Assembly: GCA_034660555.1 (NCBI GenBank)
Contig: JAYEJL010000076.1
Span: 1-13,607 of the forward strand
Direction of reading: 5' to 3'
Source of the DNA: Thermotogota bacterium
GTDB taxonomy: Bacteria; Thermotogota; Thermotogae; Petrotogales; Kosmotogaceae
Length of the DNA stretch: 13,607 nt
The notes beneath the pieces are model-generated. The model searched no databases and was not told where the DNA came from. It saw nothing but the letters and a program-made list of their open reading frames with translations. This document shows positions 780 through 13,606 of the stretch, one piece after another. Every line of letters begins with the position of its first letter. Position 1 is the stretch's first letter. The position numbers were made by a program, and so were the translations under genes.

Positions 780-2279
780 TTAATCTTCCATTCTTCTCAT
801 AATATATTTTGTTTGATTGTAAATGTCTTTATATAATTTAAAACACTTCTTGTATTTTAATGTATTTTCTTGATCTGGTTGTATGCAGTCACTATGTTCA
901 ATTAAAGATTCTGCATCTTTTGTATCCTTTATGTATCCTACTGAGAGTCCTGCAAGTATCAAGTTACCTATGGCTCCTGTGTCCTGAGTTTTTAGAGTTC
1001 TCACTTCTTTTCCCAGCACATCTGAAAGGATTTTTCTCCATAATTCACTCTTGCTTCCTCCGCCAACAACACTAACGTAATCAGCGTCAACGCCTAATTC
1101 CTGAACAATGTCCATGCAGTCTTTTAATGAATAAGAGACTCCTTCCATTATAGCTTTTATCATATGTGATTTTTTATGTTTCATTTTTAAACCAAAAAAT
1201 GTACCTTTAGCTTTTGAATCCCAGTGCGGAGTTCTTTCACCCATGAGATAGGGTAAAAAGATCAAGCCTTCAGAACCTGCTGATATTGTTTTAGCGAATC
1301 TGGTGTATTCTTTGAAAATATCTTCACCAGAGTCAGGGTCGAAAGCATTTCTAAACCATTTTAAGCTTGAAGCTGCTGTTTGAGTAACTCCGAGAATATC
1401 CCAGTAGCCTTCCAGTGGATAACTCCAGCAGGAAACCCTTTTTTTAGTTTCTTTTACTGGTTTTGAAATACAGCCTGCAACAACTCCAGCTGTTCCTAAA
1501 ATACATGAAATTCTTCCTTCTCTTAATAATCCCGATCCGATTTCTGCAACAGAATGATCTGAACCACCATTGATTACCGGGATACCTGTTTTTAGTTTCA
1601 AGATATTTGCTTTTTCTCTAGTCAAATAACCCATTACGCTTGTTGATGACTGAACCTCGGGAAATAGATTTTTTGGAATATCTGTCATTTTAAAAGCTTC
1701 TTCTGACCATTTATTTTTCTTTATGTCAAATAAAGCTACTCCTGAAGCATCAGAGGGATCAGTAATCATGTTATTTGTTAACAAATATTTTATGTAATCC
1801 TTTGCAAGCAGTATATGTTGGGTTTTGCTGAATAGATCGCTTCGAAATTTCTTGGTCCAGCAAACTTGAGGAGCTGTGTAAGTTGTGGTTGGAGCAATCC
1901 AGGTTTCTTCAAAAAGTTTTTCAGTAATACCCCTTTGTTCCCATTCTTTGATAACTGAAGAACTTCTCTGATCTAACCATGTTATTGCATTTCCAAGAGG
2001 TTTCATTTTCGAGTCGAGATAAACATGAGTATGCATCTGACCACATAGAGAAATCGCTGTTACTCTTTTATGAAGTTCAACAAATTTATTGGATAGTTCT
2101 TTTGCACATTGTACAATTCCGTTCCACCATAAGTCAGGATCCTGCTCTGCCTGACTTTTTTCCTCAGTGATTAAAGGATATTCATAGTTAGCAACGGACT
2201 CAATAGTGCCTTCAAAATTAACTAGAGCCACTTTTACTGCTGTTGTTCCAAGATCAATTGATAATACTGCATCTTTCAT
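780..2279 (-). CDS. xylB: FGGY-family carbohydrate kinase, xylulokinase-like
   Basis: 499 aa. Motifs IDLGTTAVK, CGQMH, TDPSDASG, LPYLMGERTPHWD, VGGGSKS. RBS GAGGTG upstream of the ATG. Exact substrate not established. Confidence 0.8.
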   Translation of the reverse strand: MKDAVLSIDLGTTAVKVALVNFEGTIESVANYEYPLITEEKSQAEQDPDLWWNGIVQCAKELSNKFVELHKRVTAISLCGQMHTHVYLDSKMKPLGNAITWLDQRSSSVIKEWEQRGITEKLFEETWIAPTTTYTAPQVCWTKKFRSDLFSKTQHILLAKDYIKYLLTNNMITDPSDASGVALFDIKKNKWSEEAFKMTDIPKNLFPEVQSSTSVMGYLTREKANILKLKTGIPVINGGSDHSVAEIGSGLLREGRISCILGTAGVVAGCISKPVKETKKRVSCWSYPLEGYWDILGVTQTAASSLKWFRNAFDPDSGEDIFKEYTRFAKTISAGSEGLIFLPYLMGERTPHWDSKAKGTFFGLKMKHKKSHMIKAIMEGVSYSLKDCMDIVQELGVDADYVSVVGGGSKSELWRKILSDVLGKEVRTLKTQDTGAIGNLILAGLSVGYIKDTKDAESLIEHSDCIQPDQENTLKYKKCFKLYKDIYNQTKYIMRRMED

Positions 2280-2375
2280 ATGTCACCTCGCATTTTTTTG
2301 CAATAATCAATGCTTTCTAATTTAGTAAAATTCAGTTTTTAGATCAGTTTGTACAAAAACGTATTAATTGATAAA

Positions 2376-3815
2376 TTAATTTTGTTTAACCATTTTGATA
2401 AATTTTCCGAATGCTTTATCCCACATAGATGTATTATGAGGTTTGTATTCTTTAAACTTAAATGAATTATTTAATAATTCATATCCCTGTTCAAAGCTTG
2501 AAACATAGTTTAGAGCTAACAACTGTAAAAGTAAATTTCCAATTGTGGTGCCATCAGCAGGCCCTGCTATAACGGGTAGATTGGTTGCATTTGCTATCAT
2601 TTGACAAAGTAGCTTGTTATTTATTCCGCCACCAACTATACGGATTTTATTCAAACGATATCCAAATAATTTTTCTATATTCTCTTTTGTTTTCCTTATT
2701 TTCAGGGCAATACCTTCAAGAGCAATTCTTGCGATTTCATTCCTGGTCTGAGGGACTTTTCCAGATAACTTTTTAGATTCATTTGCAATCTCGTAGTCCA
2801 TCTGCCTTGTTTTTTGAAAAATTTCTTCATCTACATTTATGTAACCAGAAAAACTGGATGCATTTTCTGCCATTTTTACCAATTTCTCATATGTAACTGG
2901 ATTATCAGTACTATTCCATTGTTCCTTCAATTTCTGAAATAACCATAACCCTGTTGTATTTGCAATTACTCTCAATCTTCCATCTGCACAACCTTCAACT
3001 GCATAATTATATTCTAATATTTCTTGTGTTTTGGGTAATTTGGAAACAACAACACCGTTCAAACACCATGTTCCAAGACTGATTATCATCACTTGATTTG
3101 ATTTTGCTGAAACTGATGCAAAAGCTGAACCTGTATCATGTGATGCAGGTAGAACGACTTTATATTTTTGATCACTGTTAAAAACTGTTCCAGGAGGTAC
3201 TACTTCTGGGAAAATTTTAGGTATTCCCAGTGTTTTAATCATTTCATAATCCCATTTCTTCGCTCTATAATCGTAAAGTTGAGTTGTGGTAGCTTGTGTA
3301 AACTCATAGTACTTTTTACCTGTTAATTTATAAGCAAATAATGAAGGAATGGATAGAATTCTATCAGCTTTTTTCAATAATTCTTTATGAGTTTTCTTGT
3401 AGAAAAGTAGCTGGTAAACTGTATTAAATGGTTGAAACTGGGTGGGAATTCTTTCGCTTATATAATTTTTGTTTTCATCGATAACGTTTCTAATGTAATC
3501 TTTTGCTTTGAACATTGTTCTATACTGTAAAGGATCATTTATCAGGATTCCTTTTTTGTCAAGAAGTCCAAAATCAACACCCCACGAATCGAAGCCAACT
3601 GATTCTACATCATAGTGTTTTGTAACTTTATCTATTACTTCCATTACAGAATCATAGATTTTGCTGAAACTCCACCAGCTAAGATTATTTTTTTCATAAT
3701 GGAAGCTATTTACATAACCAATTTTTTTAATATCTAATAGTTTTCCGTTAAAACTACCTAGGATTATCTTGGTGCCAGAAGCGCCAAGATCAACTGCGAT
3801 AAAATTAGAAGTCAT
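2376..3815 (-). CDS. FGGY-family kinase, rhamnulokinase/fuculokinase (RhaB-like)
   Basis: 479 aa. AVDLGASG, DSWGVDFGLLD, QPFNTVYQL, HDTGSA, SLGTW, IVGGG and CQMIANAT are typical of the RhaB subfamily. Confidence 0.8.
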   Translation of the reverse strand: MTSNFIAVDLGASGTKIILGSFNGKLLDIKKIGYVNSFHYEKNNLSWWSFSKIYDSVMEVIDKVTKHYDVESVGFDSWGVDFGLLDKKGILINDPLQYRTMFKAKDYIRNVIDENKNYISERIPTQFQPFNTVYQLLFYKKTHKELLKKADRILSIPSLFAYKLTGKKYYEFTQATTTQLYDYRAKKWDYEMIKTLGIPKIFPEVVPPGTVFNSDQKYKVVLPASHDTGSAFASVSAKSNQVMIISLGTWCLNGVVVSKLPKTQEILEYNYAVEGCADGRLRVIANTTGLWLFQKLKEQWNSTDNPVTYEKLVKMAENASSFSGYINVDEEIFQKTRQMDYEIANESKKLSGKVPQTRNEIARIALEGIALKIRKTKENIEKLFGYRLNKIRIVGGGINNKLLCQMIANATNLPVIAGPADGTTIGNLLLQLLALNYVSSFEQGYELLNNSFKFKEYKPHNTSMWDKAFGKFIKMVKQN

Positions 3816-3828
3816 GGTTATCGACTAA

Positions 3829-4464
3829 TTATTGTAGATAGTTTTCTCTATAATTTTTTCTTAATAGTGGGAGCTTATCTTCCGGAATATAAGAGATTTC
3901 TCCACCTAATTTGAGTGCTTCTATATATACTTGAACATTTTTCTCAGTTACTTTAGCCCCCGTTAATACCTCACTAAATCTCTTGCCTACATTAACTAAA
4001 CCGTGATTGCTCAGAATTGCTGCGCCATTGTCTTCTAAGGCTTTTGCAACATTGTTTGCCAGTTCCCATGAACCAGGATCAGCATATTCTGCAACCTTAA
4101 TCTCAGGTCCACAGATCATAGCACTATCCTCTATTAGTGAAGGCACAGTTTTAAAAGCAACAGAAGCAATAGAAGAATATATGGGATGAGTATGTAATAT
4201 TACATCAACGTCTTCTCTCGCTTTGTAGATAGCAACATGCATTTTCCATTCTGACGATGGGTTTCTATCGCCTTCGAGAATATTCCCTTCAAAATCAATT
4301 ACAGAGATATCTCGCTCTGTCATTTTTTCGTAGGAATAACCACTTGGTGTGATGAAAATTTTATTTAATTCTCTAATAGAAACATTTCCCCATGTTCCTT
4401 TAACAAGTTCTTCTCCGATCATTTCTTTGCACGCTTCTACAACTAACTTTTTGAAATTCATCAT
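3829..4464 (-). CDS. Class II aldolase/adducin-family protein (L-fuculose-1-phosphate aldolase/AraD-like)
   Basis: 211 aa. GNVS, ITPSG, PSSEWKMH, HTH and NHG motifs (Zn ligands and phosphate site). Confidence 0.88.
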   Translation of the reverse strand: MMNFKKLVVEACKEMIGEELVKGTWGNVSIRELNKIFITPSGYSYEKMTERDISVIDFEGNILEGDRNPSSEWKMHVAIYKAREDVDVILHTHPIYSSIASVAFKTVPSLIEDSAMICGPEIKVAEYADPGSWELANNVAKALEDNGAAILSNHGLVNVGKRFSEVLTGAKVTEKNVQVYIEALKLGGEISYIPEDKLPLLRKNYRENYLQ

Positions 4465-4480
4465 CTTATCATCTTCCTTT

Positions 4481-5035
4481 CTATGTAATATTTTTTATTG
4501 ATTTTCTTTCAACAATAGTTGCCTTTAAAACAATTTGAGAAACATCTTTATTACGGTTTTCAATCCTTGTTAGCATAGCTGTGGCAGCTATATTACCTAT
4601 TTCCAAAATTGGTTGCTTGATTACTGTGAGTGGAGGATTTATTATTTCATTTTCTGGCACTTCACTAAAACCAAGCAATGATATATCATCTGGTACTTTT
4701 ATGTTGTATTTTTTGGCTATTCTTAAGAATGAATAAGAAATATCATGGTTGGTTGCAATCACAGCTGTGGGTTTATTATTTAATTCAAAAAAACTGTTTA
4801 AATCCTCCTCTGCTAAACTTGAAGGATATAAATTTTCTAAAATCCATTTGTTTTCTGTTTTCAAATTGAAGTATCTTAAAGCCTTTCTGAATCCTTTATA
4901 TCTTTCTTCAATACAATAATTACCTCGTTTTGAAAGGAGTATTCCAATTTTTTTATGGCCTTTTTCCTTATGTTTTTGCTTTATTACTCCAGGAAATGTT
5001 AAAAGAAATAATTTACCAAGATCATCTTTTGTCAC
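4481..5035 (-). pseudogene. Chimeric ORF: ~23 aa resembling a GH3 glycosidase N-terminus fused to the C-terminal half of a LacI-family regulator (no HTH)
   Basis: GTG start at 5035 with AGGAGG RBS at 5045-5050, overlapping the ROK stop. From about aa 24 it reads EKGHKKIG..ERYKGF..KPTAVIATN..VPDDISLLGF..PPLTVIKQP..IVERKS, the LacI C-terminal sensor subdomain. The LacI HTH and first subdomain are absent. Confidence 0.7.
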
Positions 5036-6134
5036 TCTTGCGTGCCTCCTTTTTGAGACAATTTAGAAAGTTAGTGAGTTGTTCATCATTATTGAATAAC
5101 TCAAGGAGAAAATTTAAAGATGCACCAATTGCGTTTAGGGCGTTCTCTTTTCTTTCTCTTATAAACTGAATTTTTCTCTTATTAGCCATAAATACATTTT
5201 TTTGGATTTTTTCAGTCATTGTATTCAGGACACTATCTGGCAAAAATCGAATGTTACCGTTAATAATGACCGTATCGGGATCGAAGATGCTTATAAGAAG
5301 GGCAAGCTTTTGTGAAATGTTATCGATGAAGTATTTAACTTCCTTACATATCTCGCTTTCAGAATACTTTTCAAGAAAGGTAAAATAATCAAGCATTTTT
5401 GTATTTTTATTTTCCGTCAGACAAAGATTGAACTCATATTCACCTGCGTGATTATTTGAACCATGATAAAGTTTGTTCAAAAGAGATATACCTACTCCTA
5501 CACCAACAGGGTCCTTTAGTTTATAAGGCACTGAAATATAAAAATATAGAATATTTTTTGCTTTTTCCCACAATTTTGAATTGTAATATGTTACTCCAAT
5601 ATTTGAATCATTTTCCATAACAATCGGGATTTCAAGTGAACTGGAAAGTTTTTTCATAAGATTTAATTGGGAAATGTCAAGTGCCTTGGAATAAACAATT
5701 ACACCGTTCTTTGAATCAATAATTCCCGGTAAAGATATTCCTCCACCATAGAGTTTATACTTAGTACTCTTTTCTTTAATTGTAGTTGTGATCAGCGAAG
5801 CAATATTATCCTTCGTTATTTGCTCATGAACAGAAAAGCTTTCTTCAGTTTCTCCTGCAAGATTTGTTATGACGCCTTCTATACCATCTTGATGAACATC
5901 CAAGCCGACTATATAAAAACGGTCTCTTGAGAATGAAAATACGTTTGTTTTTCTCCCACCAGCTGAACCCGGTGCAATTTCGCCATCAGGATGTAAAAAT
6001 CCTATATCTTTCAACTGATTAATCCTTCTTGAAACGGTTGACTTGTTTATCCCAAGCTCATATGAGATTTCAGCGTTTGTTGTTGATTTTGTTTTCCACA
6101 TAAATCTTGATATGTCTAACAGAGTTTTTGTCAT
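5022..6134 (-). CDS. ROK-family transcriptional regulator (XylR/NagC-like)
   Basis: Start revised to ATG 6134 (MTKTLLD, 370 aa) because GGAGGA lies just upstream. N-terminal HTH (AEISYELGINKSTVSRRINQL), GGRK, GLDV, GISLPGIID, ENDSN, GVGVGI, GSNNHAGE. The CxCGxxGC zinc motif is absent. Confidence 0.9.
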   Translation of the reverse strand: MTKTLLDISRFMWKTKSTTNAEISYELGINKSTVSRRINQLKDIGFLHPDGEIAPGSAGGRKTNVFSFSRDRFYIVGLDVHQDGIEGVITNLAGETEESFSVHEQITKDNIASLITTTIKEKSTKYKLYGGGISLPGIIDSKNGVIVYSKALDISQLNLMKKLSSSLEIPIVMENDSNIGVTYYNSKLWEKAKNILYFYISVPYKLKDPVGVGVGISLLNKLYHGSNNHAGEYEFNLCLTENKNTKMLDYFTFLEKYSESEICKEVKYFIDNISQKLALLISIFDPDTVIINGNIRFLPDSVLNTMTEKIQKNVFMANKRKIQFIRERKENALNAIGASLNFLLELFNNDEQLTNFLNCLKKEARKSDKR

Positions 6135-6154
6135 TAGGATTCCTCCATAAGTGA

Positions 6155-6177
6155 TAGTTGCTTGCAACATGCAACTA
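6155..6177. promoter_or_regulatory. Putative ROK-family operator
   Basis: TAGTTGC-TTGCAACAT-GCAACTA: perfect 7-bp arms, 9 of 11 symmetric positions, 20 bp upstream of the ROK start. The TAGTT-N13-AACTA layout resembles the Bacillus XylR operator. Confidence 0.7.
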
Positions 6178-7251: not shown

Positions 7252-8592
7252 TCAAAACTCTATGAATTCAAGATTTGCTGGAATTTCTATGTCGAATTCG
7301 TATTGTAATTCATCTTTTAGGTTTAAAAGTGCTTCTTTATCTCCGTGAACATATATTAACTTAGATGGTTGAAGATCACGAGGTAACTGAATTAATTCAT
7401 CATAACTTGCATGACCGGAGAAGTTGTAGATATCCACATCGCTTTTTAACTCTATCGGCTTAAAATCCTCTCCATTTTCCGAAAAGACTATTTCCTCTTC
7501 TCTGTTTCTGTGAGCTTCGAGTAACCTATAACCATTTGATTCAGGGCTTTGATATCCCATAAAAAGCACAGCGTTATTATGTGATTTAATTATTTCTTTA
7601 GCAAAAATGTATGAAAGTGTGTCTTCTATGAGCATTCCTGAACTTAGGATCAAGATCATTGGTTTATTTGAATTAAGAACAGGTTCGATTCTCTTTGGCA
7701 TAACTTTCACGTACTGTGAAATTGATTCTGCGAACCATTCTCTTTGTTCATCGTTTATGCCCAAGTAATCTTTCAAATATAATTCTGTTATCACAAGAAC
7801 CATTCCATTAATATATATGGGTACTCTTGGTATTTTTTCTTCATCCATCATCTTCAATATCATATGTAATACTTCTTGGCCTCTTCCAAGAGCAAAGACG
7901 GGTAGAAGTGCACATCCTTTGTTTTCAAGAACGGAAGATAATTTTTCGTTTAATCTTTTAAGTTCATCATATCTTGTAGCTCCATATCCTTCTTTAAGCC
8001 CATAAGTTCCTTCTGAAATTAAAACATCGATGTCTTCTGGTAGTTTTGCTGCTGGAATTGTGTACTGATCAGATAATGAAATATCGCCCGTGTAAAAGTA
8101 CCTATTTTTTTGGTGTTCTATCAATACCGAAGATGCACCCATGACATGACCGGCAGGATACAGTGTGAGATAAGCTCCTTTACTGAGTTTATAACGTTTA
8201 TAATAAGGTAAAGAAATAATATGTCTTTTTGTTTCTTTGACCTGTTTGTGACTGTAAAGGATAGGTTCATTATCTTTTTCAAATTTCTTTTTCATAATCT
8301 CTACTGAATTCCTCAGGATTCGGACAGAAAGAGCCTTATTTTGCTTTGCAGTTAAAACCTTCACATTAGGAAATTCTTTTATTATGTAGGGCAAAGAAGA
8401 TAGATGATCATAATGAGCATGAGAAACAATTACATAGTCAACTTTCTTTAGATTTTCAATGTAAGGAAGCGACTCGTAGCCTTCTCTAACCGGATGGCGA
8501 CCGGCATCTATTAATATATCAAGTCCAGCGACATTAACCAGATAACAGTTGGCACCTATCTCTCTGCCGCCACCAAGGGGTTTAAACTTCAT
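7252..8592 (-). CDS. MBL-fold beta-CASP ribonuclease (CPSF73/Ysh1-like, COG1236 type)
   Basis: Start revised to ATG 8592 (MKFKPLGGGREIGANC, 446 aa) with RBS AGAGGAGG upstream. Motifs DAG, SHAHYDH, AGHVMG, YTGD, SEGTYG, PVFALGRGQE, SGML, GYQ, FSGHA, VHGD. Confidence 0.9.
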   Translation of the reverse strand: MKFKPLGGGREIGANCYLVNVAGLDILIDAGRHPVREGYESLPYIENLKKVDYVIVSHAHYDHLSSLPYIIKEFPNVKVLTAKQNKALSVRILRNSVEIMKKKFEKDNEPILYSHKQVKETKRHIISLPYYKRYKLSKGAYLTLYPAGHVMGASSVLIEHQKNRYFYTGDISLSDQYTIPAAKLPEDIDVLISEGTYGLKEGYGATRYDELKRLNEKLSSVLENKGCALLPVFALGRGQEVLHMILKMMDEEKIPRVPIYINGMVLVITELYLKDYLGINDEQREWFAESISQYVKVMPKRIEPVLNSNKPMILILSSGMLIEDTLSYIFAKEIIKSHNNAVLFMGYQSPESNGYRLLEAHRNREEEIVFSENGEDFKPIELKSDVDIYNFSGHASYDELIQLPRDLQPSKLIYVHGDKEALLNLKDELQYEFDIEIPANLEFIEF

Positions 8593-8730
8593 TATATATT
8601 TGCCTCCTCTGCATGTTAATTCTATCAGAAATGGGAAATACTTTCTTCTTTGTTTAGAAGCTTCAAAGGAGTAAAATAATAACAACGTTCTTTATTCATC
8701 GTATTCTTAAAAAGTGGCAGGAGGGTTATA

Positions 8731-10086
8731 ATGGAAAATGAATGGGGATATATCATCAATCTACTTTACCTTGCTTTACTTTTTGGCGCAGTAGCAATTA
8801 TAAAAAGCCTTATCAGACCTCTAAAAAAGCTATTATTACCCAACTCTGTTCTTGCCGGATTTCTTGGAATTTTATTTGGTCCCAGTGTACTGGGAATACT
8901 TAATTTTTCGTATGATCGCCTTGGCGTTATGGTCTATCATTTGATGGCCATTGGGTTTATAGCAATTGCTTTAAAGAGCCGGAAGAAAAATTCTACACGG
9001 ACAGCTGTTAACACAGGTTTTATGATTGCTGTTTCTTATGCGATTCAGGGAATTCTTGGTTTTAGTGTAGCGCTTTTCATATTCTTTACGTTTTTCAAGG
9101 ATGTTTTTATGCCTTTTGGGTTGTTATTACCCCTGGGATTTGCGCAGGGACCAGGACAGGCATATTCAATGGGAACGCAATGGGAAGCTTTGGGATTTAT
9201 TAACGGAGGTACAATAGGTCTTGCCATTTCGACTTTTGGTTTTTTATGGGCAGCTTTTGGAGGGATAATTCTGCTAAATGCTCTAGTTTTCAGAAAAAAG
9301 GTTGGACCTTTCAAGATGGAAAAGCCAAAGGTTAGGAGAAGCGTTGAAACAACAGTTAAAGACTATGAATTTTCTGATATTGATGGTATGACTATTCAAA
9401 TGCTTACGATAGGTCTTGTCTATTTTGTAACTTATATGTTTTTGAAGTGGTTTACGGGGTTTTTAGGCGATTTTGGTGCTTTTGGTGAAACATTTGCCCA
9501 GGTGTTATGGGGATTTCACTTTGTAATTGGAGTTATGTTTGCGTTTATTTTTAGAAAGTTTTATGACAAATATCGGAATAAGAAAGAAAAAATTGAGTAC
9601 GTTAATAATTTCCTTCTTCAAAGGGCAGCTGGAGTTGTTTTTGATTTCATGGTTGCGGCTTCTATTGCAGCAATATCCTTTGAGCTAATAAGTGAGTACA
9701 TTGTTCCAATTATTTTGTTAACTACTATAGGTGGTTTTGGAACAATGCTATATTCTATTTGGTTTTGCAAAAGGATCTACAAAAATGCTGTTCTTGAGCA
9801 TATTATAGCGTTTTTTGGAATGCATACGGGTACAATATCTACGGGCATGGCACTATTAAGAGAGGTTGATCCACAATTCGATTCAGGAACTGCTGAAGAT
9901 ATGGTTATGGGTAGTGGACTTGCACTGTTTCTTGGTTTACCTTTAATGCTTATAATAAACATTCCTATAATGGGGTTCAGACTCAATCAACCCATTTACT
10001 ACCTTTATACAATTTTAGCATTAATAGCCTATTTCGCAGTTATGTATATATTCTGGTTTAGGAAAGTGCGCGTGGATAAAGAATAA
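8731..10086 (+). CDS. Sodium:glutamate symporter (GltS/ESS family) membrane protein
   Basis: 451 aa with many hydrophobic helices. Re-entrant loop motifs GFAQGPGQA and GMHTGTISTGMALLREVDP. RBS GGAGGG. Substrate inferred from family only. Confidence 0.8.
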   Translation: MENEWGYIINLLYLALLFGAVAIIKSLIRPLKKLLLPNSVLAGFLGILFGPSVLGILNFSYDRLGVMVYHLMAIGFIAIALKSRKKNSTRTAVNTGFMIAVSYAIQGILGFSVALFIFFTFFKDVFMPFGLLLPLGFAQGPGQAYSMGTQWEALGFINGGTIGLAISTFGFLWAAFGGIILLNALVFRKKVGPFKMEKPKVRRSVETTVKDYEFSDIDGMTIQMLTIGLVYFVTYMFLKWFTGFLGDFGAFGETFAQVLWGFHFVIGVMFAFIFRKFYDKYRNKKEKIEYVNNFLLQRAAGVVFDFMVAASIAAISFELISEYIVPIILLTTIGGFGTMLYSIWFCKRIYKNAVLEHIIAFFGMHTGTISTGMALLREVDPQFDSGTAEDMVMGSGLALFLGLPLMLIINIPIMGFRLNQPIYYLYTILALIAYFAVMYIFWFRKVRVDKE

Positions 10087-10092
10087 AGTCTT

Positions 10093-10124
10093 AATTTGGT
10101 TACCAAATTTTCAGGTGATATAAT
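10093..10124 (+). promoter_or_regulatory. Promoter of the lipoprotein-protease operon with an overlapping palindromic operator
   Basis: TTGGTT (10096-10101), 17 nt spacer, TG-A-TATAAT (10119-10124, extended -10). Perfect inverted repeat AATTTGGT-T-ACCAAATT (10093-10109) covers the -35. Confidence 0.65.
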
Positions 10125-10174
10125 TGTTTAATGAATTAACATTCTAATTACTTTAACCAAAGGAGGTGAGGTTC

Positions 10175-11665
10175 GTGAAGAAATTTTTACTTTTTGGGCT
10201 GGTTCTATTGATGGTTCTAATGATGGCTTCGTGTTTCAAAGCTTCATTTGCCGTTATTGAGCTTACGATAGAACCGTTAAAATGTAACATTGCTAATGGA
10301 ACAGAAATAACATTTTCATGGGAGTATGAGTCTCAAGATGATGTGAAAGTTTCAAATCAGGTACTGAATATCGGTGATGAGGAAATTCCTGTTACAGGTA
10401 CATCTTATGTAACAGAATTGGCAACCGGTGTATACTATGTATGGCTGGAAGCTGAAGTACAGAATGATAATATGTTTGCCAAGAAACCAACAACGGTAGA
10501 ATCAAAACATTATAAACTTGTTGTTTATGATCCAGGAGTAAAATTCTTGAATGAAGAAACAGCATATGCTACAACAACAGTAACTGTAGAATGGGAACCT
10601 GTTGATGGTCTTGAACACAGCTATTCATGCTCTATTGACGGGAAAGAACCTGAAATTATTGATAGTACTTCTAAAACATTTGAAGGATTATCAGAAGGGG
10701 ATCATACATTGTCTGTGAAGATTGCCGAAGATGAAGGTTACCCTTCCGAATTTAATTTTAAAGTAGATATGACAGGTCCTTCTGTTTCAGTTTACGGTAC
10801 AGATCGATATACTACTGCTCTTGGTGATGGAGATTTCAGACCCTTTGGGAGATATGCGTTAATATACTGGGGATTCAGCGAACCTGTGAGTGCTGCTGAA
10901 ATCAGGATCAGGCAGTTTACAGATGACGGACTTAAATGGGTGACCAACTGGATTCTCTGGGATCCAGAATATGACTGGATTTTAATTAACGATGATAAGG
11001 TCACATTATACATGCCACAGGGTGTGGCATATATGGAAGACGTTTTTGTACTTGGTGAGAGTTATCTCATATATATCGCAGGCTATGATGAATTAGGTAA
11101 TTGGAACTATAATTATGCGTCATTCAAGCTTGAAGAAAGATATACTGATGATACAAAACCCGAGATTTTAGTCAAGCCTGTTGCAGTAACATCAGCAACT
11201 GAAGATGCTTCAGGGACGCTAACTGTTTCAGTAATTACGCCAAATGTCAAGGAATACATAGCCAATCTTTTTCAGGAGTATTTCGCACCAGATAACACTG
11301 AGAATAGCTCTCTCATGTATTTGCAAACAACATTGAAACACAGTGAAGGATTAAAAGTTGACTCTGTTGAAATGCCTAACTACATGGAGAAAATGAGGGA
11401 TCTTTCTCAATATCGTGTAGGAGAAAGTGCTGTTACATTCTTTAAAGGATTTGTCGCTGGTTTGGGTATAGAGGAAGAAGCTTACGATATAATTGCTGAA
11501 GTCACTTTCAAATTTGGAACAGAACTGAATGGAACCAATGCTCAAGTCGGTCTTGGTTATGATTACTATATAAGAGACTTCAATAACAGGACAATTGACG
11601 GGATAGTTGTGGATAATTTCATGTACAATGTTGAAATTCCCACCCCGGAAGAACTGGGAATGTAA
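10175..11665 (+). CDS. Multi-domain lipoprotein with beta-sandwich (Ig/FnIII-like) modules and a putative C-terminal cohesin domain
   Basis: Start revised to GTG 10175, 8 nt after AGGAGG (496 aa). Signal peptide II MKKFLLFGLVLLMVLMMAS-C (Cys codon 10232-10234). YSCSIDG..SKTFEGLSEGDHTLSVK is an Ig-like module pattern. The C-terminal ~160 aa has a cohesin-like strand pattern. Confidence 0.75.
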   Translation: MKKFLLFGLVLLMVLMMASCFKASFAVIELTIEPLKCNIANGTEITFSWEYESQDDVKVSNQVLNIGDEEIPVTGTSYVTELATGVYYVWLEAEVQNDNMFAKKPTTVESKHYKLVVYDPGVKFLNEETAYATTTVTVEWEPVDGLEHSYSCSIDGKEPEIIDSTSKTFEGLSEGDHTLSVKIAEDEGYPSEFNFKVDMTGPSVSVYGTDRYTTALGDGDFRPFGRYALIYWGFSEPVSAAEIRIRQFTDDGLKWVTNWILWDPEYDWILINDDKVTLYMPQGVAYMEDVFVLGESYLIYIAGYDELGNWNYNYASFKLEERYTDDTKPEILVKPVAVTSATEDASGTLTVSVITPNVKEYIANLFQEYFAPDNTENSSLMYLQTTLKHSEGLKVDSVEMPNYMEKMRDLSQYRVGESAVTFFKGFVAGLGIEEEAYDIIAEVTFKFGTELNGTNAQVGLGYDYYIRDFNNRTIDGIVVDNFMYNVEIPTPEELGM

Positions 11666-11677
11666 GGGGGGATTGAG

Positions 11678-13120
11678 ATGAAAAAATTACTAATTATAAT
11701 TTCATTGGTTTTAATTGTTGGAAGCTTATTTGCTGGTGAGATTTATGACCAAGCAGTTGTGAACGCGAATGAAATCAACGAGAAAATTGCTGAATTAAAA
11801 TTACCTTGGACTGCTGGAGCTCCTGAATCTTTGAAACAGTTTGAAGCCCGTGGTATAAAGGAGCTTGAAGCTATTTTCGACAAGTGGCATGGGTATAGGG
11901 ACCTTCCTGAACCTGCGCAAAGAGATATTCATAAGTACTTTTTTGCTGACAAAGCCACAACAAGGGATTCTCAGATAGTTTCAAGTCAGTTCATGTATTT
12001 CGCTAATTTTGACATTGTTCTTCCTGATTCTTTTATACAGGTTCACACATCAATCAAGAATCAGGCATATCATGGAACTTGCTGGGCTTTTGCCACGGTT
12101 GGTGCTTTTGAAAGTGCGATGATGGTTCAAAAAAACGGTTTGTTTGGTAGCGAAACAGCTTCACCTGTTACACAGCAGCTGGATAATTGCGATTTCTCAG
12201 AACAATTCCTCTCTTTCCACAATATAGACTGGAATGTTTATATCGAATCATATTACGATCCGACAGAGTCTGACCTTATTATTCAGGATGCAAGTCACGA
12301 CGCAGGTGGTAATATGCATTTTTCAACCTATAATAGTATCCGTTATGGATTGCCATTGGAAGAAGATTTCCCATACAAAGGGTTCGATGTAAACCCGTGG
12401 ATTTTATGGAACCCTGTGGTTGATGATTGGAGAGATCGAGTAGAAAAGAGCACAAAGACTATACAGATTTATTATGGAGATGAACTAAGCTGGATGGGTT
12501 TGCCTTATGAATACTATAACTGGGCAATAAAAGAAGCTTTATTAAAATTCGGTGCTATCGGAGTATCATTTAGTGTACCAGATGATTTCCACTATTATAG
12601 TGAAGGAATTTATATTCCTATGACAGATGAAAAAAGTGGCGGACACGCTGTAACACTTGTTGGTTGGTTTGATATGGATGCAATAAAAGAACTTGGATGG
12701 GCTTCCGAAAATGCAACTAGTATCGAAGTAAATGATCCATTTTCTGGATTAACCTGGGATGCAACGGAATTCTGGGTTATCAAAAACAGCTGGGGAAAAT
12801 GGGGATGGAATGGTTACTATGTTGTTCCTATGGCTTCCAAAGAATTGTATAATATCTCCGCTGAATATGGTTATGGTATAACACCCTGGATGATAGAATT
12901 CAGAAACATGTTCGTTCCACTTTTTGAAGAAGCCTATACAGATCTTGAAAATATTGACTTTAACAATGATGGAAAAGTCGATGAGGAAGATTACGAACTT
13001 ATAGTAGAAGCTTATGGTACTTACAATTCAACTTATGATATCTCAATCCCAAGAGATGGTTATGTAGACCATGAAGACATTGCGAGATTTTTGCTTATAG
13101 CTAATTCGATAGCTGATTAA
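11678..13120 (+). CDS. Secreted papain-family (C1A) cysteine protease with a C-terminal dockerin-like domain
   Basis: 480 aa. Signal peptide I (..GSLFA|G), propeptide with WTAG, oxyanion Gln129 and Cys135 in QAYHGTCWAF, DFSEQF, His323 in GGHAV, Asn370 in WVIKNSWG..WGWNGY. C-terminal paired Ca-binding loops DFNNDGKVDEED and DISIPRDGYVDHED. Confidence 0.92.
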   Translation: MKKLLIIISLVLIVGSLFAGEIYDQAVVNANEINEKIAELKLPWTAGAPESLKQFEARGIKELEAIFDKWHGYRDLPEPAQRDIHKYFFADKATTRDSQIVSSQFMYFANFDIVLPDSFIQVHTSIKNQAYHGTCWAFATVGAFESAMMVQKNGLFGSETASPVTQQLDNCDFSEQFLSFHNIDWNVYIESYYDPTESDLIIQDASHDAGGNMHFSTYNSIRYGLPLEEDFPYKGFDVNPWILWNPVVDDWRDRVEKSTKTIQIYYGDELSWMGLPYEYYNWAIKEALLKFGAIGVSFSVPDDFHYYSEGIYIPMTDEKSGGHAVTLVGWFDMDAIKELGWASENATSIEVNDPFSGLTWDATEFWVIKNSWGKWGWNGYYVVPMASKELYNISAEYGYGITPWMIEFRNMFVPLFEEAYTDLENIDFNNDGKVDEEDYELIVEAYGTYNSTYDISIPRDGYVDHEDIARFLLIANSIAD

Positions 13121-13132
13121 GCAATATCAAAT

Positions 13133-13606
13133 TTATTGATTGTTATTTTCAGGGCTTCCATTTTGGAGGTCCTGTTTATTTGTTTCTTCGTAGCTGTAGT
13201 TTCTCAATTTTTTTATACCCAGGAAAACGATAGTACCAACGACTATTATGAGATGGTAGGTAAGTATTCTCCATACTGCAATACCTACGCCCAGCATACT
13301 TTCAGAAACAGAACCATCGAGCATAAAGAATAGTCCTGCTTCCATGGCCCCGCTGGCACCAGGTGAAGGAACATAGTATGCGACAAGGTAAAGTAGTTCC
13401 TGAATGCCCCATATTTCTATTAGCGAAGCGTTAAGCACTTCTCCAGATGAGCTAGCTATTCCCACCAGTATGAAGTACAAAATGAACTTAAATACAAAAC
13501 TGAAGGAAATTGCAAGAAAAACATCGAGGATCATAAATTGTGGCCCTTTTCTCCAGAGGATATACATATACTTATGGAATTCTTCAAATTTTTCTCTCAA
13601 TATTTC
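13133..13606 (-). CDS. UPF0104/lysylphosphatidylglycerol synthase TM-region (flippase-like) membrane protein, 5'-partial
   Basis: PSPGASGAME and WRILTYH motifs with hydrophobic helices. The frame stays open to the window edge, so the true start lies outside. Confidence 0.82.
   Translation of the reverse strand, partial: EILREKFEEFHKYMYILWRKGPQFMILDVFLAISFSFVFKFILYFILVGIASSSGEVLNASLIEIWGIQELLYLVAYYVPSPGASGAMEAGLFFMLDGSVSESMLGVGIAVWRILTYHLIIVVGTIVFLGIKKLRNYSYEETNKQDLQNGSPENNNQ

Follow-up and report, generated by a model that had tools for sequence, protein, structure and literature searches.

A cohesin-fold lipoprotein and a dockerin-tailed C1A protease as a probable two-gene enzyme tether in Thermotogota

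What does an unannotated lipoprotein do directly upstream of a secreted cysteine protease? The question is raised by a 13,607-nucleotide stretch of DNA from a Thermotogota bacterium (assembly GCA_034660555.1, contig JAYEJL010000076.1), called the window here, which is one whole contig of a 2.1 Mb genome that is 95.5% complete. A first-pass annotation, made from the letters alone, had proposed that a membrane-anchored cohesin lipoprotein tethers a dockerin-bearing protease, and this core idea has held up: a cohesin fold, a dockerin-type tail, the co-occurrence of the two genes and a modelled interface all agree with it. The pair very probably forms a dedicated two-gene tether, in which a lipid-anchored stalk captures the secreted protease by its dockerin. 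The host had also been placed correctly in Thermotogota, the closest protease homologue listed (88% identity) being named for a Kosmotogaceae bacterium. The two genes and their parts are as follows.

10175..11665, + strand: lipoprotein gene, 496 residues (leader, three beta-sandwich stalk domains, C-terminal cohesin-fold domain), GTG start
10175..10234, + strand: lipoprotein signal peptide with lipobox, Cys20 (sequence and conservation)
10250..11128, + strand: three tandem immunoglobulin (Ig)/fibronectin type III (FnIII)-like beta-sandwich domains, residues ~26-118, 122-200 and 204-318 (AlphaFold2 and Foldseek; boundaries by eye from DSSP)
11153..11647, + strand: cohesin-fold domain, residues 327-491, with an insertion between strands 2 and 3 (AlphaFold2, VIA, Foldseek)
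11678..13120, + strand: C1A cysteine protease gene, 480 residues (signal peptide, pro-region, catalytic domain, dockerin-type tail)
start of 11678..13120, + strand: protease signal peptide, residues ~1-19 (by eye)
12047..12868, + strand: Peptidase_C1 domain, residues 124-397, with Q129, C135, H323 and N370 (PF00112, E-value 2.9e-22)
12956..13108, + strand: dockerin-type module, residues 427-477, two calcium loop-helix repeats (PF00404 below cut-off; family and PDB matches)

The lipoprotein presents a cohesin-fold domain

The C-terminal domain of the lipoprotein, modelled alone from 29 sequences (AlphaFold2, predicted local distance difference test score (pLDDT) 86.5), takes the nine-stranded beta-sandwich form of solved cohesins. 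Compared with 48,161 chains by VIA, its ranks 1 to 19 are all cohesins (Z 13.0 to 9.6), led by 4uyp_A (Z 13.0, root-mean-square deviation 2.6, 136 aligned residues); CLIPPER and pilin domains follow at Z 9.5 and below, with pilin and adhesin domains at Z 8-9.5. Foldseek returns cohesin 2jh2 as its best match (E-value 4.7e-6), and all but one of the matches listed are cohesins. The strand segments that had been quoted as following the cohesin pattern are all present. The insertion between strands 2 and 3 is specific to the family, and one subgroup lacks it. At the level of Pfam, the proposed check against PF00963 gave a divided answer: the window's copy does not reach the cut-off, while nine of the 29 family members touch the model at E-values up to 1 (best 7.3e-5). 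In genome G033 a partner lipoprotein that is more distantly related exceeds the PF00963 cut-off (30 bits). When 1.84 billion representatives were searched by profile, a single Ig-like repeat dominated the matches, and no cohesin relatives came out beyond those already found.

The N-terminal end carries the anchor. The hydrophobic leader ends in MASC, and its cysteine, Cys20, is at least 90% conserved among 18 homologues. Across 69 partner frames longer than 400 residues the lipobox pattern occurs in 53, and the 16 misses, on inspection, are 5'-cut loci or pattern misses. With a type II signal peptide, a lipobox cysteine and both Lgt and LspA encoded in the window's genome, the protein has the hallmarks of a bacterial lipoprotein, and its lipidation is predicted. 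Structurally, the full-length AlphaFold2 model is all-beta with four domains, of which the three Ig/FnIII-like ones probably form a stalk. Whole-protein Foldseek matches are FnIII/Ig arrays that swamp the result, and the cohesin was seen only once its domain had been folded alone. By profile search, residues 130-210 resemble repeats of giant proteins; for residues 200-330 the Ig/fn3-like matches are leads, below the Atlas bar. Searches of the lipoprotein against Pfam and NCBIfam gave nothing meaningful, and a Trp_halogenase match (E-value 0.004-0.02) was treated as chance. Length and sequence of the N-terminal domains differ greatly between members, in proteins of 427-643 residues; conserved motifs outside the cohesin face are PFGRY, D-x-LGN and ERY.

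The protease ends in a dockerin-type tail

By its sequence, the second protein qualifies as a papain-type C1A enzyme, with Gln, Cys, His and Asn in papain order. These four residues (Q129, C135, H323, N370) are invariant in 61 aligned sequences, namely the window's protein and 60 of the 120 homologues listed, picked as near full-length, and the best PDB matches are falcipain and cathepsins. Further homologues listed are named for Kosmotoga, Tepiditoga, Thermosipho, Fervidobacterium and Marinitoga, among them Marinitoga piezophila KA3 and Thermosipho melanesiensis. The PF00112 match, the invariant catalytic set and the presence of both repeats bear out the earlier description of a signal-peptide C1A protease ending in two calcium-loop repeats.

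Two loop-helix repeats of ~22 residues, with Asp or Asn at loop positions 1, 3, 5, 9 and 12, give the tail the layout of a dockerin. The calcium loops lie at D427-D438 and D454-D467; D427, D431, D438 and D454 are present in 44 of 44 family tails, and N429, D460 and D467 in 41 of 44. The type I layout first proposed applies in part: the first loop is canonical, but the second is longer by two residues (DISIPRDG), with Ser at position 3, and the symmetry of a dual-binding dockerin is absent. The extra residues usually include Pro, and the few members without them have a plain dockerin loop. Near-identical recognition residues in both repeats, as dual binding would have them, were not found: positions 10/11 and 17/18 read E-E and V-E in repeat 1, and H-E and L-L in repeat 2. 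Because the repeats differ at these positions, a single binding mode appears likelier from the sequence.

Taken alone, the window's tail is ambiguous, because it falls below the cut-off of both Dockerin_1 (PF00404; 19.3 bits, cut-off 22.9) and EF-hand_1 (21.2 bits, cut-off 25.4). The PF00404 check that had been suggested thus misses on the window's own copy but succeeds on the family, where the fold is identified by profile: Dockerin_1 matches 43 of 44 family tails (E-values up to 0.1, best 1.8e-9) and EF-hand_1 39 (best 7e-7). When the family profile is run against the PDB, the best seven matches are dockerins and the first EF-hand protein comes eighth. Three protease homologues carry a precomputed PF00404 annotation.

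The two genes travel together

The pairing was surveyed in 151 Thermotogota genomes, a pair being a cohesin domain followed within 500 bp by a protease on the same strand; the genomes share kinship and are not independent, and the counts are given without a P value. The protease occurs in 58 genomes (78 places) and the cohesin-domain profile matches in 49 (60 places). Directly upstream of a protease lie 57 of these 60 copies, in 46 genomes, as the earlier expectation of co-occurrence in relatives would have it. Profile building drew on 29 of the 60; of the 31 that took no part in it, 28 are paired as well. Two of the three unpaired copies sit at a contig edge, and the third is a remnant, after which comes a signal-peptide-like stretch that is truncated.

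Seen from the protease, the cohesin profile pairs 55 of the 65 copies whose match reaches the tail; directly upstream of three others lies a more distant lipoprotein or frame that matches PF00963, bringing the total to 58 of 65; four of the remaining seven are cut by contig ends. Where the match ends before the tail, 11 of 13 proteases are without an upstream cohesin-type gene. The one of these tail-short proteins that was inspected is fused to a clostripain domain instead; at L054:692-3418 (G102:C40) a related tail-less C1A domain shares a probable lipoprotein with a clostripain (C11) domain, a two-protease protein that seems to be its own anchor. Among metagenome loci, a redundant set of which the best 80 were kept, the automatic pairing rule is satisfied by 47 of 51 frames that bear the tail and have room upstream. 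The two genes lie -4 to +32 bp apart in every one of 80 distinct pairs. The tail and the upstream cohesin co-occur across nine families, and the flanking genes change between genera, so that only the pair itself is conserved. In Tepiditoga spiralis the two genes bear adjacent locus tags (OSSY52_10760 and OSSY52_10770).

In genome G017 the lipoprotein and the protease are joined in one 868-residue frame (L035:2316-4919, G017:C3) that keeps both cohesin and dockerin and has lost the protease signal peptide and part of the pro-region. The other fused frame found is an identical protein, and the fusion counts as one observation. Its cohesin-dockerin joint could be intramolecular or could chain molecules together. 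A search for longer or fused forms gave 14 proteins, none of them fused (8,000 candidates scored; weak evidence). Sequence identities of the two domains correlate (r 0.91; partial 0.44 given the catalytic domain), as expected from co-inheritance, and the correlation is given no weight. Some genomes hold tandem or multiple divergent copies of the pair, up to three (L009, L037, L039), and in two loci one copy is a decayed remnant (L010, L049).

A modelled complex uses the usual cohesin face

The lipoprotein's cohesin domain and the protease's dockerin tail were modelled together with alignments and two Ca2+ ions. The complex scores 0.81 against 0.39 for the best control, a confident interface of the kind that had been asked of the two domains; among 157 solved complexes 116 attain the score mark, and among 215 mismatched pairs 2 do, counts that hold only roughly here. 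Model runs agree in at least 97% of contacts, and partner pLDDT is at least 87. On the lipoprotein side the predicted contacts comprise residues 381-384, 410-414, 421-429 and 465-471, on strands 3, 5, 6 and 8 in our own strand numbering; on the dockerin side both helices take part. The dockerin-binding sheet of cohesins consists of strands 8-3-6-5 in the available text of PMC5429695, and the modelled contacts fall on the face described there. The interface includes Y382 and Q384 of the lipoprotein (41 of 43) and N476 of the dockerin (40 of 44). Covariation over 80 pairs (effective number 42) gives a mean Z of 0.36 at 25 modelled contacts, matched by 3.6% of random draws; none of the top 25 column pairs lies in the interface, and the top pairs look like clade markers.

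Proposed mechanism and location

In the proposed mechanism, the lipoprotein would be exported and receive its lipid at Cys20, and a stalk of three beta-sandwich domains would present a single cohesin-fold domain. The C1A protease would be exported by its ordinary signal peptide, and its C-terminal dockerin would fold on two Ca2+ ions and bind the flat sheet of the cohesin one-to-one. An active endopeptidase would thereby be kept at the membrane and not released. Binding is inferred to depend on Ca2+.

The protease is probably held in the periplasm, at the outer face of the cytoplasmic membrane and under the toga. LolA was not found in the window's genome (95.5% complete) with the query used, and the Lol system is reported as practically absent from Terrabacteria, in which Thermotogae are placed, in the available text of a preprint (10.1101/2021.05.31.446380); for these two reasons the anchor probably stays in the cytoplasmic membrane. 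As to purpose, cutting proteins or peptides beside uptake systems is our first choice, slightly more likely than not, and processing or turnover of envelope proteins is a less likely second.

Alternative readings

How many clients the lipoprotein serves was addressed by a census of 32,120 six-frame open reading frames from the window's genome, using PF00404, PF00963, a motif scan and four custom profiles (one each for the window-type cohesin and dockerin and, from relatives, for a second type of dockerin and a cohesin of more conventional kind). The custom profiles and the motif scan match only the window's two genes. Likewise the protease tail is the sole PF00404 match in this genome, and PF00963 has no genuine one, its weak match (E-value 0.59) being an unrelated DUF4350 protein. 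Several cohesins or dockerin clients and carbohydrate-active enzymes, the marks of a scaffoldin or cellulosome, are not seen: there is one cohesin and one dockerin, and the client is a protease. On this census there is one socket and one plug, and the system reads as a dedicated one-to-one tether, not a multi-client scaffoldin. The part of the first-pass annotation that spoke of a minimal scaffoldin, perhaps with other dockerin proteins encoded elsewhere, is therefore not supported. That several different dockerin proteins dock on the lipoprotein in the source organism is improbable: some relatives hold several paired copies, and large lipoproteins and an M6 peptidase there bear another type of dockerin, and an incomplete genome leaves room for a missed client, but only the window's protease and lipoprotein match any profile, and phylum-wide all placeable matches to the window-type dockerin at E-values below 1e-12 are tails of a C1A protease.

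The main rival, which we hold to be unlikely, makes the lipoprotein chiefly a regulator of the protease (a folding or activation factor, or an inhibitor), with the cohesin-dockerin joint serving only for partner finding. Operons of a protease and its inhibitor are known, as in staphopain/staphostatin and SpeB/Spi. Strict one-to-one pairing would suit such a role, the PFGRY, D-x-LGN and ERY motifs and the family-specific cohesin insertion could touch the catalytic domain, and the G017 fusion is missing the signal peptide along with some of the pro-region. However, most tail-less relatives of the protease (11 of 13) exist without the lipoprotein, so in general the catalytic domain can do without it; being permanently fused makes more sense for an anchor than for an inhibitor; and the widely varying N-terminal domains look like spacers. 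Less probable still is that the two domains do not bind each other at all, the tail then being a module for calcium stabilisation and the lipoprotein an adhesin-type protein that shares the operon but is unrelated. EF-hand profiles do match the window's tail as well as Dockerin_1, pilin and adhesin domains come next after the cohesins in the structure search, and covariation at the modelled contacts is weak; yet tail and upstream cohesin travel together across nine families, G017 fuses them naturally, conserved residues lie on the modelled face, and the complex scores far above its controls.

Several observations weigh against the tether. The window's cohesin and dockerin copies are both under their Pfam cut-offs, the cohesin-fold domain having no PF00963 match and the tail scoring higher on EF-hand_1 than on Dockerin_1 (21.2 versus 19.3 bits). 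The cohesin-domain profile finds no cohesins among PDB sequences, and a non-cohesin, CLIPPER (Z 9.5), stands level with the weakest cohesin rows of the structure search. The second calcium loop is atypical, and key aspartates are lost in a few members. Interface columns are only modestly more conserved than others (mean 0.50 versus 0.41), and, cohesin and dockerin being a textbook pair, the model's pass may reflect solved look-alikes. The G017 fusion rests on one assembly and is unchecked by reads.

Relation to known systems

The tether has its closest likeness in OlpA and OlpC of Clostridium thermocellum (PDB 3ul4 and 4dh2, with type I dockerins), where one cohesin at the surface likewise holds one dockerin enzyme through the same binding face as in the modelled Thermotogota complex; the cohesin-fold domain matches these structures at Z 11.7 and 11.4. 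OlpA and OlpC are anchored by S-layer homology domains. They serve a cellulosome with dozens of clients, whereas the Thermotogota pair has a lipid anchor, one client and adjacent genes. The same fold occurs outside cellulose degradation in non-cellulosomal cohesins of Archaeoglobus fulgidus (2xdh, Z 12.3) and of C. perfringens glycoside hydrolases (2jh2, 2w1n, 2vo8), which share 10-16% identity with the Thermotogota domain and have different carriers; to our knowledge, none of these is a lipoprotein paired with a C1A protease.

Envelope proteases anchored by dockerins are likewise described, in the available text of the sources, for Ruminococcus flavefaciens RflaF_05439, an NlpC/P60-type cysteine peptidase whose X-dockerin binds ScaE (PMC12484212), and for a C. 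thermocellum S8 protease with a double dockerin (PMC3573020). As described there, these belong to other protease families and share their anchors with the cellulosome, whereas the Thermotogota pair has its own. The suggestion of a protein-degrading rather than cellulose-degrading complex is not new. In the texts available, a hypothetical 'planctosome' of Planctomycetes (PMC6461901) and a cellulosome-like complex of Ca. Stygibacter in Cloacimonadota (PMC8542988) were both proposed from genomes for polypeptide degradation. As outlined in those texts, both are also hypothetical, and in place of a two-gene lipoprotein unit they have large scaffolds, multi-domain or with several cohesins, and peptidases of families M12B, M14, S8 or C25. 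Cohesin and dockerin proteins are also noted in anaerobic methanotrophic (ANME) archaea and their partners (available text of PMC9012536 and PMC10553843), and the available text of a papain-family review (PMC10380794) mentions neither dockerin nor cohesin. A full-text literature search found no paper on cohesins or dockerins native to Thermotogota, though an older non-cellulosomal survey may list Thermotogae proteins.

The cohesin-dockerin joint is thus known, protease-bearing versions have been proposed in other phyla, and the paradigm stands. What the pair adds is a function offered for an unannotated lipoprotein family present in a third of the Thermotogota genomes searched (49 of 151), and a concrete route by which toga-wrapped bacteria could retain a secreted enzyme. 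Divergent cohesins that escape Pfam would also mean that cohesin-dockerin systems are undercounted outside cellulosome producers. Named thermophiles in culture (Tepiditoga spiralis, Marinitoga piezophila KA3, Thermosipho melanesiensis) make the pair open to direct testing; if binding holds true, they would supply heat-adapted and probably orthogonal cohesin-dockerin pairs for designer enzyme assemblies.

A second dockerin type in other Thermotogota

Weak matches of the dockerin profile reveal, in other Thermotogota proteins, a second dockerin type whose second loop is long. Large lipoproteins of 670-2,900 residues (L060, L061, L062, L063, L065, L067, L072, L074) begin with a small beta domain, a conventional cohesin-like domain and a second-type dockerin and then carry cargo, for example caspase-like C14, SBP_bac_5 (solute-binding) or FnIII domains. 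Beta-propeller-like secreted frames of ~900 residues (L055-L059, L071), found in many family-f9 genomes, end in a second-type dockerin, as does a secreted M6 peptidase (L069:2924-4519). Two partner lipoproteins themselves carry this dockerin. In genome G012 a run of lipoproteins lies directly upstream of the protease (L205:6052-14724 and L205:652-6039 = G012:C5; L038:1731-5113): one of 1,796 residues with a PF00963 match, one of 2,891 residues with a second-type dockerin near its N-terminus and two C-terminal cohesins, and one of 643 residues with a second-type dockerin and the protease-binding cohesin. The run looks like scaffold, adaptor and enzyme. In the window's genome, the profiles for the second dockerin type and the conventional cohesin have no match beyond the window's pair. 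We suggest, tentatively and as something rather doubtful, that Thermotogota, in which the Lol route for lipoproteins appears to be absent, use cohesin-dockerin joints as a general envelope docking system mostly missed by Pfam, with the window's pair as its minimal unit and, in some lineages such as G012, such a pair as the last tier of a larger assembly, built around the protease under the toga in several tiers and with two or more orthogonal specificities.

Expression signals and neighbouring genes

The signals around the pair are as follows.

10116..10124, + strand: extended -10 promoter-like element TGATATAAT (perfect match, in the 88-bp gap upstream of the lipoprotein gene)
10160..10169, + strand: ribosome-binding site of the lipoprotein gene, AAGGAGGTGA (read from the sequence)
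11666..11677, + strand: 12-bp intergenic gap with a G-rich ribosome-binding site for the protease (read from the sequence)
13150..13174, + strand: terminator-like hairpin, 30 bp past the protease stop and within the end of the convergent gene

The listing of open reading frames puts the start of the lipoprotein gene at 10166; it is placed at the GTG at 10175 because AAGGAGGTGA sits at 10160-10169. The reading frames and this site agree with the first description of two co-oriented genes 12 bp apart, the lipoprotein gene starting at 10175. That the two stand behind one promoter is supported in part. A sigma-70 scan returned no site upstream of the lipoprotein gene and missed TGATATAAT, which occurs once in the window, at the level expected by chance (~1 per window, mean 1.30). 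Support for the element therefore comes from its recurrence at the equivalent place in relatives: TGATATAAT in three of the five compared, and TGCTAAAAT or TGCTAGAAT in the other two. A near-palindrome at ~10094-10110, considered as an operator, was rejected as absent from the relatives compared. Terminator-like sites in the region number five, against 2.9 expected by chance. An RNA run covered only contigs of relatives, with all 30 bins covered, flanking genes included, and may contain DNA.

Farther upstream, positions 780-6170 (- strand) hold two sugar-kinase-like genes, an aldolase-like gene, a ROK-like regulator and a LacI-like fragment whose frame has no obvious N-terminus, all named by eye from translations. 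A beta-CASP metallo-beta-lactamase nuclease (7252-8685, - strand; best model aCPSF1, below cut-off) is divergent from a gene for a 451-residue membrane protein without Pfam or NCBIfam match (8731-10086, + strand). Not found beside the pair in other genera, these two genes also flank it in locus L209. Downstream, a convergent gene for an LPG-synthase-type flippase (13133-13606, - strand) is cut by the contig end; such a gene also lies 3' of the protease in several relatives of the same family.

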